Assembly: GCA_963542545.1 (NCBI GenBank) | Contig: CAUTWO010000002.1 | Coordinates: 87,075 to 151,074, forward strand | Direction of reading: 5' to 3' | Length of the DNA: 64,000 nucleotides | Source: an uncultured Acholeplasmataceae bacterium | GTDB taxonomy: Bacteria; Bacillota_I; Bacilli_A; Acholeplasmatales; Acholeplasmataceae | Shown: positions 17,620-21,765 of the stretch, piece by piece | How the letters are laid out: each line of letters begins with the position of its first letter | Numbering within the stretch: the first letter of the stretch is position 1 | Notes under the pieces: model-generated | Told to the model about the DNA's origin: nothing | Databases searched by the model: none | The model's input: only the letters and a program-made list of their open reading frames with translations | Program-made: the position numbers and the translations under genes

Positions 17620-17662
17620 TTTGTTTTAAGTAATTTTATTTAAGGTAAATAAATATATTTTG

Positions 17663-19171
17663 ATGATAAAAAAACAGATATTCATAAAAACAATTTTAAT
17701 AACAATTTTGGCCTTATTTTCTCTGTTAATGCTTTCGGCAAGTAAAGGAATAGAACAAAACTCTAAGCCTGATTTTGAACTTAAGGTTATAAATAAATCA
17801 GACATTTCATATCGCTTTTTGGACAAAAATAGACTCGTAAGTTCTGAGTTTATAAATCCAGAAATACTCTATGTCTACTTTAAATCTACTGAGCATCGCC
17901 AAGAATTTATTGACAAAACTAGCAACGAAACAGACTTAAAAAAAATAGAGTTTATTAAAATTAAATCAGAAACAGTTGAAGTTGGCTTGCAGACAATTAA
18001 GTACGAAAACTCACTTGAACTGATTTTTGTTTCCAAAAATAGCGTTAGAAAACTAATGTTATTTTTACAAGACTTAGATGTCTTTCCTGAAATTACTGTT
18101 AAAGAAAACGAAACGATTTACTTTACCTATTTTGATTTAAATCAACTTAAATATTTAATTCGTAAACACTACAAAATTTCGAATAATTTTGATTTAGAAA
18201 TTGATGCAAACAAAGTATCAGATTTTAACAAAAACCTTTTTAATAAACTTTTACTTAACTTTTACTTAACTAATTTATTTGGTGAAAAAAGTGAATATAA
18301 AGTTAATGTTATGCCAGTTAAAGATAGTGAAAATATCTTTAAAATCAACAACAATTTTATTGATTTTGAATACTTTAAAATAGCCTTAAATGGCGATTTA
18401 AAATTGAATAAGCTCAATTTCAATTTCATTGTAGATAAAAATAATTTACCTGTAAATACAAAAATTATAAACGAACAAAAACTTACTATAAATTTAAGCA
18501 AAGAAGTATATTTTGATTTACATAATTTTGATGTTTCTTTCATTTATATCAAAATAAATAAATACAAACATTTGATTTTCTTAAAGGAAAACGAAAGCAC
18601 CGAAAACATTTTTAAGTTACTTAAGCATTTAAAGCTTAACAACTTTTCTCTAAATAATGAATTTAAACAAGAAATTACATTAAATGATGATTTCAATAGT
18701 TTAACTATTAGAAAAACTAATTTGATAAATGAAGCGTCAAAAGTAACTATTGATTATAAAGCAGAGTTAGAAAAGGAAAGTAACAAATTAAACAGGACTA
18801 CATTTGATAGCACGCTTACTTTAGATGAACTTAAAAAAAGTGTACTAAAACATCTTTCTAATAAAACAATAGATGTAAAAATCATTTCTAAAAACTCAGA
18901 GCAAGGTCGGTTTGTTTGTGAGTTTTTTGATACTAAAAAACCAGATATAAAAGTAAAGAAAACTTTGTATTTCAAAAACACACAAATAGATAATAACAAT
19001 ACAAATGACACAGAAAAACAAGAACACGCAAGTAAAAAAGATAAAAATAACTTATTTTTAAAGTATAAAATACCTTTCATAATCGCGTTATTAGTCAGTT
19101 TCACATTTTGTTTTACTATCTTAATTTCAGTTTTGGTTTGGAGGAAAAATAGAAATGGAAAGAAAAATTAA
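17663..19171 (+). CDS. Orphan type-I-like membrane protein (N-terminal signal sequence plus C-terminal TM anchor)
   Basis: About 502 aa from ATG 17663. Hydrophobic N-terminus ILITILALFSLLMLSAS. C-terminal TM IIALLVSFTFCFTILISVLVW followed by RKNRNGKKN. Very AT-rich and Asn/Lys-rich, with no recognisable domain. Confidence 0.6.
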   Translation: MIKKQIFIKTILITILALFSLLMLSASKGIEQNSKPDFELKVINKSDISYRFLDKNRLVSSEFINPEILYVYFKSTEHRQEFIDKTSNETDLKKIEFIKIKSETVEVGLQTIKYENSLELIFVSKNSVRKLMLFLQDLDVFPEITVKENETIYFTYFDLNQLKYLIRKHYKISNNFDLEIDANKVSDFNKNLFNKLLLNFYLTNLFGEKSEYKVNVMPVKDSENIFKINNNFIDFEYFKIALNGDLKLNKLNFNFIVDKNNLPVNTKIINEQKLTINLSKEVYFDLHNFDVSFIYIKINKYKHLIFLKENESTENIFKLLKHLKLNNFSLNNEFKQEITLNDDFNSLTIRKTNLINEASKVTIDYKAELEKESNKLNRTTFDSTLTLDELKKSVLKHLSNKTIDVKIISKNSEQGRFVCEFFDTKKPDIKVKKTLYFKNTQIDNNNTNDTEKQEHASKKDKNNLFLKYKIPFIIALLVSFTFCFTILISVLVWRKNRNGKKN

Positions 19172-21695
19172 ACTATTTATAACAGTTATATTTTTATTTT
19201 TTTTATTAGGTTTATTTTTTTCAAACTCTATATATAATAACAAAACAGTTAAAAGTACAGTTAATTTAAAGAGACAAAATCGACCCAGACCTAATAAACC
19301 GCCAATACACAACGAAAAGAGTTATTCTGTATTTTTTGAAGGAGTCCCAATTATAAAAGGGGATAAATTAGAAAATAAAGATACTTTACTTAAAAACGGA
19401 TACATTTTAAGAATCAAGCATCACAGTTTTTCCCGTTTCTATAACTATCAATATACAAAAAATAACGGAAATAAAATAAAACCAGAAAACACAAATATTT
19501 CACTTTTATTTTTATCAAACTCAAAATTGTATTTAGATGTTTCTATAGGTAATAAAAAAATAGAACTTGACGAAAATAAAATTATTTATCATAGACACGA
19601 ATATATCAAAATAGATAAAAATGAAAGTTATCAAATAATTCAAAGCGCCACAAAAGTCAAAGTAGAAGACCTAAATACTAAAGACATAAAGAAACAAATT
19701 TTAAATTATAACGATTTTGATTTATCTGATTGGACAATTGATTATAAAAACTCTAGTTTTTTTAATCTAAACAGCGCAAGAATATATGAAAATTTTTATC
19801 AAGACACAGATAAAGACATTAGACAAAGTAAATTCATTTCTTTTAAAAAAGACAGCAGATATTTGTTTTTCTTTTTTAGACTCGATACAGAAGCGTTTGA
19901 CAGTAACAAAATAAACAAAATAAGTTTAAATGAAGATGTATTTGAATCAGAAGAGAATTCAATTAAAACAAATTATCAAAAATATATAGCGACTTTTTCA
20001 CTACTCACAGAAATAAATGAAAACCGAATTGACTTCGAAAAAGCAATCTTAAAAAGATTTAAAAGAGACGACAGACAGTTTTTACTTGTTGTCTACGGTA
20101 ATATTTTTAAGATTGTGCAACTAGAAATTGGTTCTTTAAATAAAGACTTTGAAACTTTTGTGGAATTGGTTGAACTTAATACCATAAATGAAATTAACTT
20201 ATTTAAAAAAGATAAAATTGTATTCACTCTAGCTGAGATTAAAAAGACTTTTGAAAAATTCATTTCCAACTATCATATTGATGAATTAGAACTTTTAAAT
20301 CAATTAACCAAATTAAATACACATAACGAAACAATTGAACTTAATTTTTACACGAAAAATAACTCAACAAAACAAATTTTAAAAACCTTAAAATTAAAAC
20401 TCAAAGTAGCAAAAGAAATTGATAAACTAGACCTAACTTTTAAAACCAATAACAATTACTTTATTGCAGACGACAAGAAGATAACATCAATTAGTTCAGA
20501 TGAACTCAAAAAGAAAACCTTCAGACACTCTGCAACAACTTTAAATGGTTCTGAAACGACACTTTATACTGGTTTTGAAACCGATATAAACTCAGTTATT
20601 GCAACAATTAAAGGACAACTTAAGAATATTTTTAATGAAAAAGAATACGAAATTTACAACTTAGAAGATAAAAATGGTAACTTTTTATTTTCAATTCAAA
20701 AACTTAGTACTGGCGAAGTTAGAGTTTTCAGGGTAAAAGTTAGGCGAATAAGTCCCGTTTCTGATTTTTATGAACTAAATAGATTATTTATGTTTTACTA
20801 CTATCAAACTGAACATAATATTCAAGAAGTTCTAAATTACTTTAATTCAAAAACCAATATTTTAAAAAATTTAAACTTAGAAATTCTTAATTACACTGAG
20901 CTAAACACAGAAATCAACAAATTAAAAGTAAGCCCTTATGCTTACAAAAAGTTGAAACTGAGTCTTCAAGACAAGTATTCAAATATATATACTGTCTCTT
21001 TTTTTGCAGAAATTAGATATGGAGACGGCGAACCTGTCAAAATTTCAGATAGTTATGTAGATTCTATGCATACAAGGTTCTTTATGTCTTCAAATTTAGC
21101 ATTTTCAAATGCTACAGCTGACTTATTTGGTTCATATGACTTAAAAAATGTAAATCAAAATCTAAGACAATGGTTTGATAAGGAAAGCGAAGATTTTACC
21201 TTAAGCGAATTAAACAAAACTTTTAAAGTCACTTATAACTTCTTTAAAAAGGATTATTTAGCGCTGCAAACCAATTCAAAAACTTATCTACTTTATTTAA
21301 ATAACAGTTTAGATTACTCAGAACAAGAAATGCAGTCAATTTTTAGTAATATTTTTGGTAAAAATATCACAAAAATTGAAAAAAACCAAGACAATTCTTA
21401 TTCTATTTGTTTGAATAATTTCCGTGAGAAATACACCATCTGTTTAAAGCATTCTAGTAAGTTAAGCAGATATAGAGTAAGTAATGAAATTATGAAAGAA
21501 AGAATTTCTCAACTTTTTAAAACTGCTTCAGAAACTAATGAAAATGCACAAAAACTCATTCAAACTCTTGAAAATTTACTCAAAAATGTTCCTGAATTAA
21601 AAATTAGTAAAGAAAATACTGGTAATTCCGCTATTATTTTAAAAATTTATTCTACTTTAAATAAAGAAATTTATAAAACTTTTACGATAGTTTAA
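19155..21695 (+). CDS. Orphan N-terminally anchored large protein
   Basis: 846 aa. N-terminal TM LFITVIFLFFLLGLFF. The start overlaps the upstream stop by 17 nt. AT-rich, with no recognisable domain. Confidence 0.6.
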   Translation: MERKIKLFITVIFLFFLLGLFFSNSIYNNKTVKSTVNLKRQNRPRPNKPPIHNEKSYSVFFEGVPIIKGDKLENKDTLLKNGYILRIKHHSFSRFYNYQYTKNNGNKIKPENTNISLLFLSNSKLYLDVSIGNKKIELDENKIIYHRHEYIKIDKNESYQIIQSATKVKVEDLNTKDIKKQILNYNDFDLSDWTIDYKNSSFFNLNSARIYENFYQDTDKDIRQSKFISFKKDSRYLFFFFRLDTEAFDSNKINKISLNEDVFESEENSIKTNYQKYIATFSLLTEINENRIDFEKAILKRFKRDDRQFLLVVYGNIFKIVQLEIGSLNKDFETFVELVELNTINEINLFKKDKIVFTLAEIKKTFEKFISNYHIDELELLNQLTKLNTHNETIELNFYTKNNSTKQILKTLKLKLKVAKEIDKLDLTFKTNNNYFIADDKKITSISSDELKKKTFRHSATTLNGSETTLYTGFETDINSVIATIKGQLKNIFNEKEYEIYNLEDKNGNFLFSIQKLSTGEVRVFRVKVRRISPVSDFYELNRLFMFYYYQTEHNIQEVLNYFNSKTNILKNLNLEILNYTELNTEINKLKVSPYAYKKLKLSLQDKYSNIYTVSFFAEIRYGDGEPVKISDSYVDSMHTRFFMSSNLAFSNATADLFGSYDLKNVNQNLRQWFDKESEDFTLSELNKTFKVTYNFFKKDYLALQTNSKTYLLYLNNSLDYSEQEMQSIFSNIFGKNITKIEKNQDNSYSICLNNFREKYTICLKHSSKLSRYRVSNEIMKERISQLFKTASETNENAQKLIQTLENLLKNVPELKISKENTGNSAIILKIYSTLNKEIYKTFTIV

Positions 21696-21765
21696 TTTCA
21701 AAAAATCAGGGATTTTTCGTTTTTGGTATTGAATTTAAAAACTTTTTTGTTATACTTACATAGAT

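Follow-up and report, generated by a model that had tools for sequence, protein, structure and literature searches.

In a 64,000-nucleotide (nt) stretch of DNA from an uncultured Acholeplasmataceae bacterium (the window, by which we mean the whole stretch analyzed), two overlapping genes, termed ORF-A and ORF-B (ORF, open reading frame), make up the fastest-diverging locus that we sampled. The pair falls into five deep sequence classes, and whole cassettes carrying both genes have been swapped between species of the genus. Judging from the sequences, we consider it probable that the locus encodes a co-translated, two-subunit variable surface complex that is polymorphic by balancing selection, with both function and expression being predicted.

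The source genome (G000; 759 kb in 13 contigs, 96.5% complete) carries the window in its contig C2, and both genes are single copy in this genome, where genome-wide blastn and tblastn searches with the cassette matched the locus itself only. We compared it with 18 other species-level genomes of the same genus (all of about 0.5 to 0.7 Mb), which are metagenome-assembled genomes (MAGs) with records titled "uncultured Acholeplasmataceae bacterium," and with further loci from other samples (e.g., L057, L060, L064, L065, and L066), five of which were added to the trees. Conservation across these relatives is not uniform: in the same genomes, the flank proteins are 89 to 100% identical at the amino acid (aa) level to those of the window, versus 64 to 72% for ORF-A and ORF-B. 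Among 88 orthologues on a 115-kb G008 contig, no others diverge as much as the pair (65% and 72% identity; next, 84.6%; median, 96.1%). For 176 orthologues on a 236-kb G015 contig, the pair stands at 64% and 68% (median, 93.3%), and the one match that ranks below it there, at 47%, was taken as a paralogue.

We then looked into the structure of this variation. Clustering of all public sequences separated both proteins into five classes at 75 to 80% identity, four of which are roughly equidistant (64 to 72%), with the fifth at about 50%. The identities of A and B covary (r = 0.98), and no mixture of A and B classes was found in 12 loci, though the conserved junction between the genes (19130 to 19175) could host a crossover. 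Several classes are represented among the ERR10228xxx accessions. Of 17 congeneric MAGs, 7 have the cassette interrupted by a contig end or confined to very short contigs (G011:C68, G007:C49, G004:C96/C34, G018:C49/C9, G009:C74, G016:C34, and G017:C7), which hints at the pattern expected if several alleles coexist in a community and break the assembly graph.

Sliding identity, alignment of the boundaries, phylogenetic trees, and approximately unbiased (AU) tests together delimit the segment that is exchanged. Identity to G008 and G013 drops in a step at the cassette edges, from about 94 to 98% in the flanks to 67 to 81% inside, with one breakpoint near 17745, immediately downstream of the sequence for the ORF-A signal segment, and the other near 21640, some 60 nt short of the ORF-B stop codon. 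Synonymous divergence (dS) and the ratio of nonsynonymous to synonymous divergence (dN/dS) were computed throughout by the Nei-Gojobori method (NG86). Against G008 and G013, dS is 0.67 to 0.95 in the cassette versus 0.11 to 0.40 (mostly 0.13 to 0.29) in the flanks; against G002, the cassette dS of 0.08 to 0.09 is below that of both flanks (0.17 to 0.59) over about 4 kb. Maximum-likelihood trees of both flanks recovered a clade of G000, G005, G012, G003, G008, and G013 with support of 100/100, versus a clade of G000, G012, G003, G005, G001, and G002, also at 100/100, in the cassette tree, which has three deep branches of 0.14 to 0.18. AU tests showed that each alignment rejects the clade of the other (p from 3.4e-6 to 2.6e-52). 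Moreover, the flank lineage of L064, L065, and L066 carries two cassette classes, and class II is found on two flank backgrounds. The conflict between flank and cassette trees, together with the sharp breaks in identity, demonstrates that whole cassettes have been exchanged by homologous recombination.

The same discordance would arise from metagenome assembly or binning if contigs were chimeric, joining co-occurring strains at the conserved junctions, and the pair were merely fast evolving along the species tree. All the genomes are MAGs, the junctions are highly conserved, and the locus often fragments assemblies, as such an artifact would have it. We nevertheless find this explanation most unlikely: each discordant combination was seen at least two times in independent samples (G008 and G013; G001 and G002), the cassette has a smaller dS to G002 than either flank over the 4 kb mentioned above, and the L064 and L065 loci are identical from two pipelines (MEGAHIT/ENA and Logan).

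Evaluation of the selection regime revealed that dN/dS of the pair is elevated over the flanks and below 1 (0.18 to 0.48 versus 0.01 to 0.15 in most flank comparisons). In sliding windows of NG86 comparisons between classes over 10 sequences, the ratio peaks at 0.6 to 0.7 over the ORF-B anchor and linker, reaches 0.4 to 0.5 in ORF-A over its N-terminal 100 and C-terminal 60 residues (full range for ORF-A, 0.03 to 0.51), and stays at 0.03 to 0.3 over most of the ectodomains. This fits long-standing allelic lineages that are shuffled whole, with relaxed purifying selection acting on each, rather than rapid adaptive substitution.

A ratio 3 to 10 times that of the flanks with no window above 1, a composition that follows mutation bias, and proteins without recognizable domains would also suit dispensable genes that drift under relaxed constraint, with divergence and AT-richness as near-neutral decay and no particular selection or role at the cell surface. 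We regard such drift as quite unlikely. Frames of 2.5 and 1.5 kb have stayed open at about 25% G+C in all 17 to 20 lineages, with lengths kept within a few residues, dN/dS is about 0.1 to 0.2 over most of the ectodomains, many motifs are invariant, and the internal Shine-Dalgarno sequence and the gene overlap are conserved. Drift can neither raise dS 3- to 6-fold against some genomes and lower it below the flanks against others nor yield the conflict between flank and cassette trees.

The original prediction had described a sharp drop in composition after the upstream terminator, and this was borne out, with a G+C content of 0.247 for 17660 to 21695 and of 0.366 for the preceding lipoprotein gene. 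In a scan of 4-kb windows across the genome (n = 1420; mean, 0.345; standard deviation, 0.026), the locus is the lowest, and ORF-A and ORF-B rank third and fifth lowest in G+C among 533 ORFs, being by far the longest of the low-G+C genes. By codon position, G+C is 0.30 to 0.31 at position 1 (mean, 0.446), 0.19 to 0.24 at position 2 (mean, 0.31), and 0.20 to 0.23 at position 3 (mean, 0.286). The deficit thus lies mainly at positions 1 and 2, because of the amino acid content: FYMINK residues make up 45 to 47% of the pair versus 35% in the genome, and GARP residues make up 6 to 9% versus 18%. Across 175 orthologue pairs, identity correlates with gene G+C (Spearman rho = 0.55, p = 2e-15; 0.54 without the A-B pair). 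The G+C predicted for such divergence is 0.25 to 0.29 and the observed value is 0.243 to 0.250 (residual z of -0.1 to -1.6), a fit that is supportive and not proof, since genes this divergent lie outside the range of the regression. AT-richness is the same in all five classes (G+C of 0.24 to 0.27). The low G+C thus matches the native trend between evolutionary rate and composition, which supports the view that no foreign donor is needed to explain it, and the extreme AT-richness would follow from fast evolution of the proteins in a genome with AT-biased mutation. Other FYMINK-rich ORFs of the genome have a G+C of 0.26 or lower (C8:15376-18146, C11:2443-3096, C7:35117-35575, C9:6295-6876, and C4:20624-21295); by the same trend, they are possibly fast evolving and possibly encode surface proteins.

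We then examined the presence of the pair among relatives. ORF-A and ORF-B are adjacent and overlapping in 15 to 16 of the 18 other species-level genomes of the genus, the misses and partial matches being MAGs of 70 to 82% completeness or contig ends. The gene order, pepO - 772-aa lipoprotein - A - B - spx - chrA - chrA - CYTH - gapdh - ung - xerC, was identical in every locus examined (6 and then 13 independent loci, including the class at 49 to 52% identity). No integrase, tRNA, or other mobility gene was found at the locus, no direct or inverted repeats were found at the cassette borders, and no empty lipoprotein-spx site was found among congeners with the region assembled. Outside the genus, neither gene was detected in the family, where 18 or more other genera were covered, or elsewhere in the order.

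An island acquired from outside the genus, its AT-richness reflecting a foreign donor, would account for the lowest-G+C 4 kb of the genome, the somewhat low G+C at third codon positions, and the absence from other genera. We consider it very unlikely, and its recent-event version is largely refuted: all congeners with adequate assemblies have the pair at the identical site, the most divergent lineage among them, this site bears no mark of mobility, no relatives were found in IMG/VR, PHROGs, or any other taxon, the neighboring lipoprotein is equally genus restricted with normal G+C, and the native trend described above predicts the low G+C. Its fixed position wherever congeners are well assembled marks the locus as native to the genus and not a recently acquired island, although the ancestor of the genus may have acquired it long ago. 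The original proposal of a "laterally acquired or fast-evolving" system therefore holds in its second part; its first part fails as recent island acquisition and survives as the exchange of allelic cassettes within the genus.

The two genes themselves were as first described, with frames of about 502 and 846 aa that share 17 nt in the ORF listing (Table 1). Residue counts confirmed that both proteins are rich in Asn (10.6 to 11.4%), Lys (11.6 to 13.7%), and Ile (9.0 to 9.8%). Hydropathy analysis gave the anticipated topologies in all classes. ORF-A would have an N-terminal signal or anchor, an ectodomain of ∼445 aa, a C-terminal transmembrane (TM) helix, and a basic tail, taken as cytoplasmic. 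ORF-B would have an N-terminal TM anchor only, followed by a Pro-rich linker and a mixed alpha/beta ectodomain of ∼800 aa. Both hydrophobic segments of ORF-A are hydrophobic across all five allele classes, the tail residues W493, R494, G499, K500, K501, and N502 are invariant or nearly so in the alignment of clusters, and P46, P49, and P50 of ORF-B are invariant within RPNKPP. Since both N termini and the ORF-A tail are basic, the positive-inside rule predicts that these signals anchor the proteins in the membrane with their large domains outside the cell. The first hydrophobic segment of ORF-A may be cleaved as a signal peptide or may stay in place as an anchor. The genome has a single signal peptidase I homologue (G000 C1:4820-5290, L063; 84.5 bits to TIGR02227), and its match contains one in-frame TAG, which could reflect a pseudogene, an assembly error, or recoding; its state bears on whether signal peptides get cleaved in this organism.

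The frames are well maintained. ORF-A has 501 to 503 aa in 20 protein clusters and about 115 invariant alignment columns, and ORF-B has 842 to 847 aa in most of 17 clusters (823 to 824 aa in two of them) and about 200 invariant columns. No simple-sequence tracts suggesting phase variation were found. The Shine-Dalgarno sequence of ORF-B is kept in 9 of 10 loci (it is GGGGG in G013). Because this embedded sequence and the overlap are both conserved, translation of ORF-B is likely coupled to that of ORF-A.

Table 1. Features of the ORF-A/ORF-B locus (positions in the window)
Feature	Position	Strand	Description and basis
Intrinsic terminator	17591..17619	+	Hairpin 17591-17616 with 11-bp stem, then T-run
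Leader, presumed promoter region	17620..17662	+	43 nt; almost invariant in all classes (10 loci)
ORF-A	17663..19171 (alternative start, 17660)	+	502 aa (503 from 17660); ORF listing
ORF-A N-terminal hydrophobic segment	17678..17734 (aa 6-24)	+	Hydropathy; followed by LSA/SK
Exchanged variable segment	17745..21640	+	Both ectodomains; sliding identity, boundary alignment, trees, AU tests
ORF-A C-terminal TM helix (predicted)	19079..19135 (aa 473-491)	+	Hydropathy; followed by tail WRKNRNGKKN
ORF-B Shine-Dalgarno sequence	19140..19145	+	GGAGGA, 9-10 nt before ATG; inside ORF-A Trp-Arg-Lys codons
ORF-A/ORF-B overlap	19155..19171	+	17 nt; kept in all classes
ORF-B	19155..21695	+	846 aa; ORF listing
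ORF-B N-terminal TM anchor (predicted)	19167..19223 (about aa 5-23)	+	Hydropathy; sole segment (aa 5-26 across all classes)
Downstream spacer	21696..21765	+	Conserved; weak hairpin; spx promoter TTGAAT-16-TATACT at 21729-21756

We then analyzed the sequences of the two proteins. In agreement with the lack of any recognizable domain noted at first, neither protein, as a single sequence or as any member of its alignment, matched Pfam, NCBIfam, PHROGs, or PADLOC. The domain searches returned only subthreshold noise, namely, a match of Arc_PepC_II to the TM/tail region and one of PF12113, the signal model of the phytoplasma SVM (sequence-variable mosaic) proteins, to aa 6 to 32 of ORF-B, where a score of 10.5 bits against a cut-off of 22.4 (E = 0.66) means that ORF-B fails the profile of these secreted proteins. 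Among 5.8 billion protein clusters, 17 matched ORF-B and 20 matched ORF-A; nearly all are full length, they are 49 to 100% identical, and none carries a protein name. A search with the ORF-A alignment profile retrieved the same 20 clusters, and the ORF-B profile found its own family and one low-complexity match only among 1.84 billion representatives. No PDB sequence-profile match was obtained for either protein, and no relatives were present in IMG/VR. Homology searches thus recovered in-genus orthologues only and no housekeeping protein; both proteins are orphans whose relatives are confined to one genus of uncultured Acholeplasmataceae. One weak match in another genus (G022, E = 6e-4) was spurious: the protein is a lipoprotein of ∼1,009 aa that contains helical repeats, is encoded at higher G+C, and is unrelated.

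Comparison of ORF-B with ORF-A by hhalign, also with 15 subdomains taken pairwise, found no common domain and no internal repeat, the best nontrivial pair being ORF-B 680-715 and ORF-A 37-72 with a probability of 43%. No paralogues or archive fragments were found in the genome. In AlphaFold2 models, the better-predicted stretches (ORF-A 290-440 and about 340-530 of ORF-B) appear as mixed alpha/beta modules. Foldseek matches to HPPD (TM score, 0.06 to 0.12; root mean square deviation, about 24 Å) and to Rib/cadherin tandem domains (E of 2e-3 or weaker; TM score, 0.1 to 0.3) were rejected as uninformative, and such matches are at most compatible with strings of small beta-rich modules.

From these data, we propose that ORF-A and ORF-B would form a bicistronic, translationally coupled operon and that their products would be subunits of a complex on the surface of a wall-less cell. 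In this complex, the C terminus of ORF-A, and possibly its N terminus too, would cross the membrane, and ORF-B would be held by its N-terminal anchor. The locus would be kept as at least five deeply diverged allelic cassettes, in which both ectodomains travel together, with crossovers at two places: upstream, within the conserved leader and the ORF-A signal region, and downstream, within the 3' end of ORF-B and the spx promoter. The classes would be maintained by negative frequency-dependent selection from a surface-recognizing agent, which could be host immunity, a host receptor, or phage.

Several points weigh against this proposal. The interaction between A and B is inferred from translational coupling and from co-segregation in 12 loci only, and no consensus sigma-70 promoter was called in the leader before ORF-A. 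Values of NG86 dS near 1 in sequence of 25% G+C are imprecise, and, with MAGs as the only genomes, some joins between flank and cassette could be assembly chimeras. Sliding-window dN/dS between classes never exceeds 1, so diversifying selection is inferred from class structure and discordance and not from substitution ratios. The AlphaFold2 models, built from alignments of 16 to 20 sequences, are weak (mean predicted local distance difference test scores of 59.5 and 60.7), and Foldseek gave no credible fold match in PDB or BFVD.

If phage were the selecting agent, the pair would serve either as the main receptor for phage or in surface exclusion, and the classes would correspond to escape forms resembling serotypes, as a protein counterpart to O-antigen or capsule loci. 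Discrete, roughly equidistant classes, conserved flanks for exchange, and low G+C are the general pattern of a serotype locus, and the contigs that break within the cassette in 7 of 17 MAGs hint at coexisting alleles. Neither protein has a match to a defense system or phage family (PHROGs and PADLOC), however, nothing separates phage from host immune or adhesion pressure, and we know of no phage of this genus; we therefore judge this specific version unlikely. A broader one, which we advance tentatively and consider doubtful as a whole, would see here a protein-based serotype or recognition locus, with a two-subunit structure, five co-adapted A/B classes, trans-species polymorphism, previously unseen folds, and frequency-dependent selection by phage adsorption, host antibody, or cell-cell self/non-self recognition.

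Known systems help to place our proposal of a variable surface complex. The immunodominant membrane proteins (IDPs) of phytoplasmas come in three anchor types: an N-terminal TM segment in Imp, one at both ends in IdpA, and a cleaved signal plus a C-terminal TM segment in Amp, which has been reported to be under positive selection (PMC10003417). The phytoplasma imp gene goes down to 71% identity while groEL remains above 99% (PMC7736341). The IDPs and the A-B pair belong to the same GTDB family of wall-less bacteria, and both are variable membrane-protein genes amid conserved surroundings. ORF-A shares its predicted layout with Amp, IdpA, and VmpA (N-terminal hydrophobic segment, external hydrophilic domain, and C-terminal TM segment), and ORF-B shares its predicted layout with Imp (single N-terminal TM segment with the bulk outside). 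IdpA retains two TM segments; ORF-A has a hydrophobic segment near each end, the first of which may or may not be cleaved, in an organism whose sole signal peptidase I homologue carries the in-frame TAG mentioned above. Unlike Amp, ORF-A had no dN/dS above 1 in the NG86 comparison of 10 sequences. Neither protein has sequence similarity to Amp or Imp in Pfam, NCBIfam, searches of other genera, or cluster and profile searches; both are about 2 to 5 times larger than the IDPs, and phytoplasma amp and imp are separate loci, unlike the adjacent, overlapping, and co-inherited A-B cassette. The pair therefore does not belong to the Amp/Imp families. The likeness of topology that was first pointed out thus stands on hydropathy and extends to variability amid conserved synteny, with no sequence relation.

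Two other kinds of loci offer parallels. In Mycoplasma, MgpB/MgpC (P140/P110) and P1 with P40/P90 are encoded by adjacent, cotranscribed genes for two large membrane-anchored surface proteins that form a heteromeric surface complex, the dominant antigen, and vary by recombination. The A-B pair has no match to a Pfam adhesin family or, by sequence, to PDB, and it has no counterpart of the archive repeats of these adhesins; its variation lies between genomes, by allele exchange. Serotype-type cassettes (O-antigen and capsule loci; pneumococcal PspA) are known for discrete deep classes, low G+C, flank recombination, and conflict with the core phylogeny, all of which are shared by the A-B locus. 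However, O-antigen and capsule loci encode biosynthetic enzymes, whereas the A-B cassette encodes the putative surface proteins themselves, in an organism that has no cell wall or capsule locus here. We would place the locus among the variable surface-protein loci of wall-less bacteria, with proteins that are true orphans.

Reduced-genome Mollicutes contact their surroundings directly through membrane proteins, and in the related phytoplasmas such proteins may have a part in vector or host specificity. The most variable locus sampled in a lineage with genomes of ∼0.7 Mb is an obvious candidate for what a host or phage would see. It also provides a five-class typing marker and cleanly illustrates, in nature, how cassettes are exchanged between species. 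Calls of horizontal gene transfer that are based on composition should be made with caution in AT-rich genomes, as fast evolution of native genes can produce an extreme AT-rich island.

Both borders of the unit are conserved in the alignment of 10 loci (one per genome), which covers the terminator, leader, overlap, cassette edges, and spacer. The strong terminator of the original prediction is supported by the hairpin call and by its folding energy (-13 kcal/mol; z of -4.75 versus shuffles), and its GAGGC/GCCTC stem is kept in 10 genomes with a variable loop. It ends the upstream pepO-lipoprotein operon and is the 5' boundary of the A-B unit. The leader that follows, whose conservation surpasses that of every part of the cassette, may act as a promoter region and possibly serve to anchor recombination on the upstream side; a regulatory site or an unusual promoter is possible. 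The downstream spacer, with a hairpin of -9.4 kcal/mol (z of -2.4) that is not a canonical terminator, is the 3' boundary and downstream recombination anchor.

Among the neighboring genes, the upstream 772-aa lipoprotein (15260-17578) is domain-less and genus restricted like ORF-A and ORF-B. It is conserved at 93 to 98% aa identity within the four main classes, with dN/dS of 0.05 to 0.065 and a G+C of 0.366, and is an internal contrast to the A-B pair and an orphan surface protein in its own right. The CYTH gene (23434-23997) has a G+C of 0.258 yet is 93 to 99% conserved in most congeners, an exception to the link between conservation and G+C. The uracil-DNA glycosylase gene, ung (25244-25900), also varies to an unusual degree: it has 63 to 65% aa identity in L057 and L060, where its neighbors have 76 to 99%, and appears cut to an 89-aa ORF in L066. 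In G003, the block from 25.1 to 27.1 kb has 76 to 82% nt identity, versus 87 to 98% in other class-I genomes. The ung region (25100-27100) thus looks like a second recombination-prone or variable segment.

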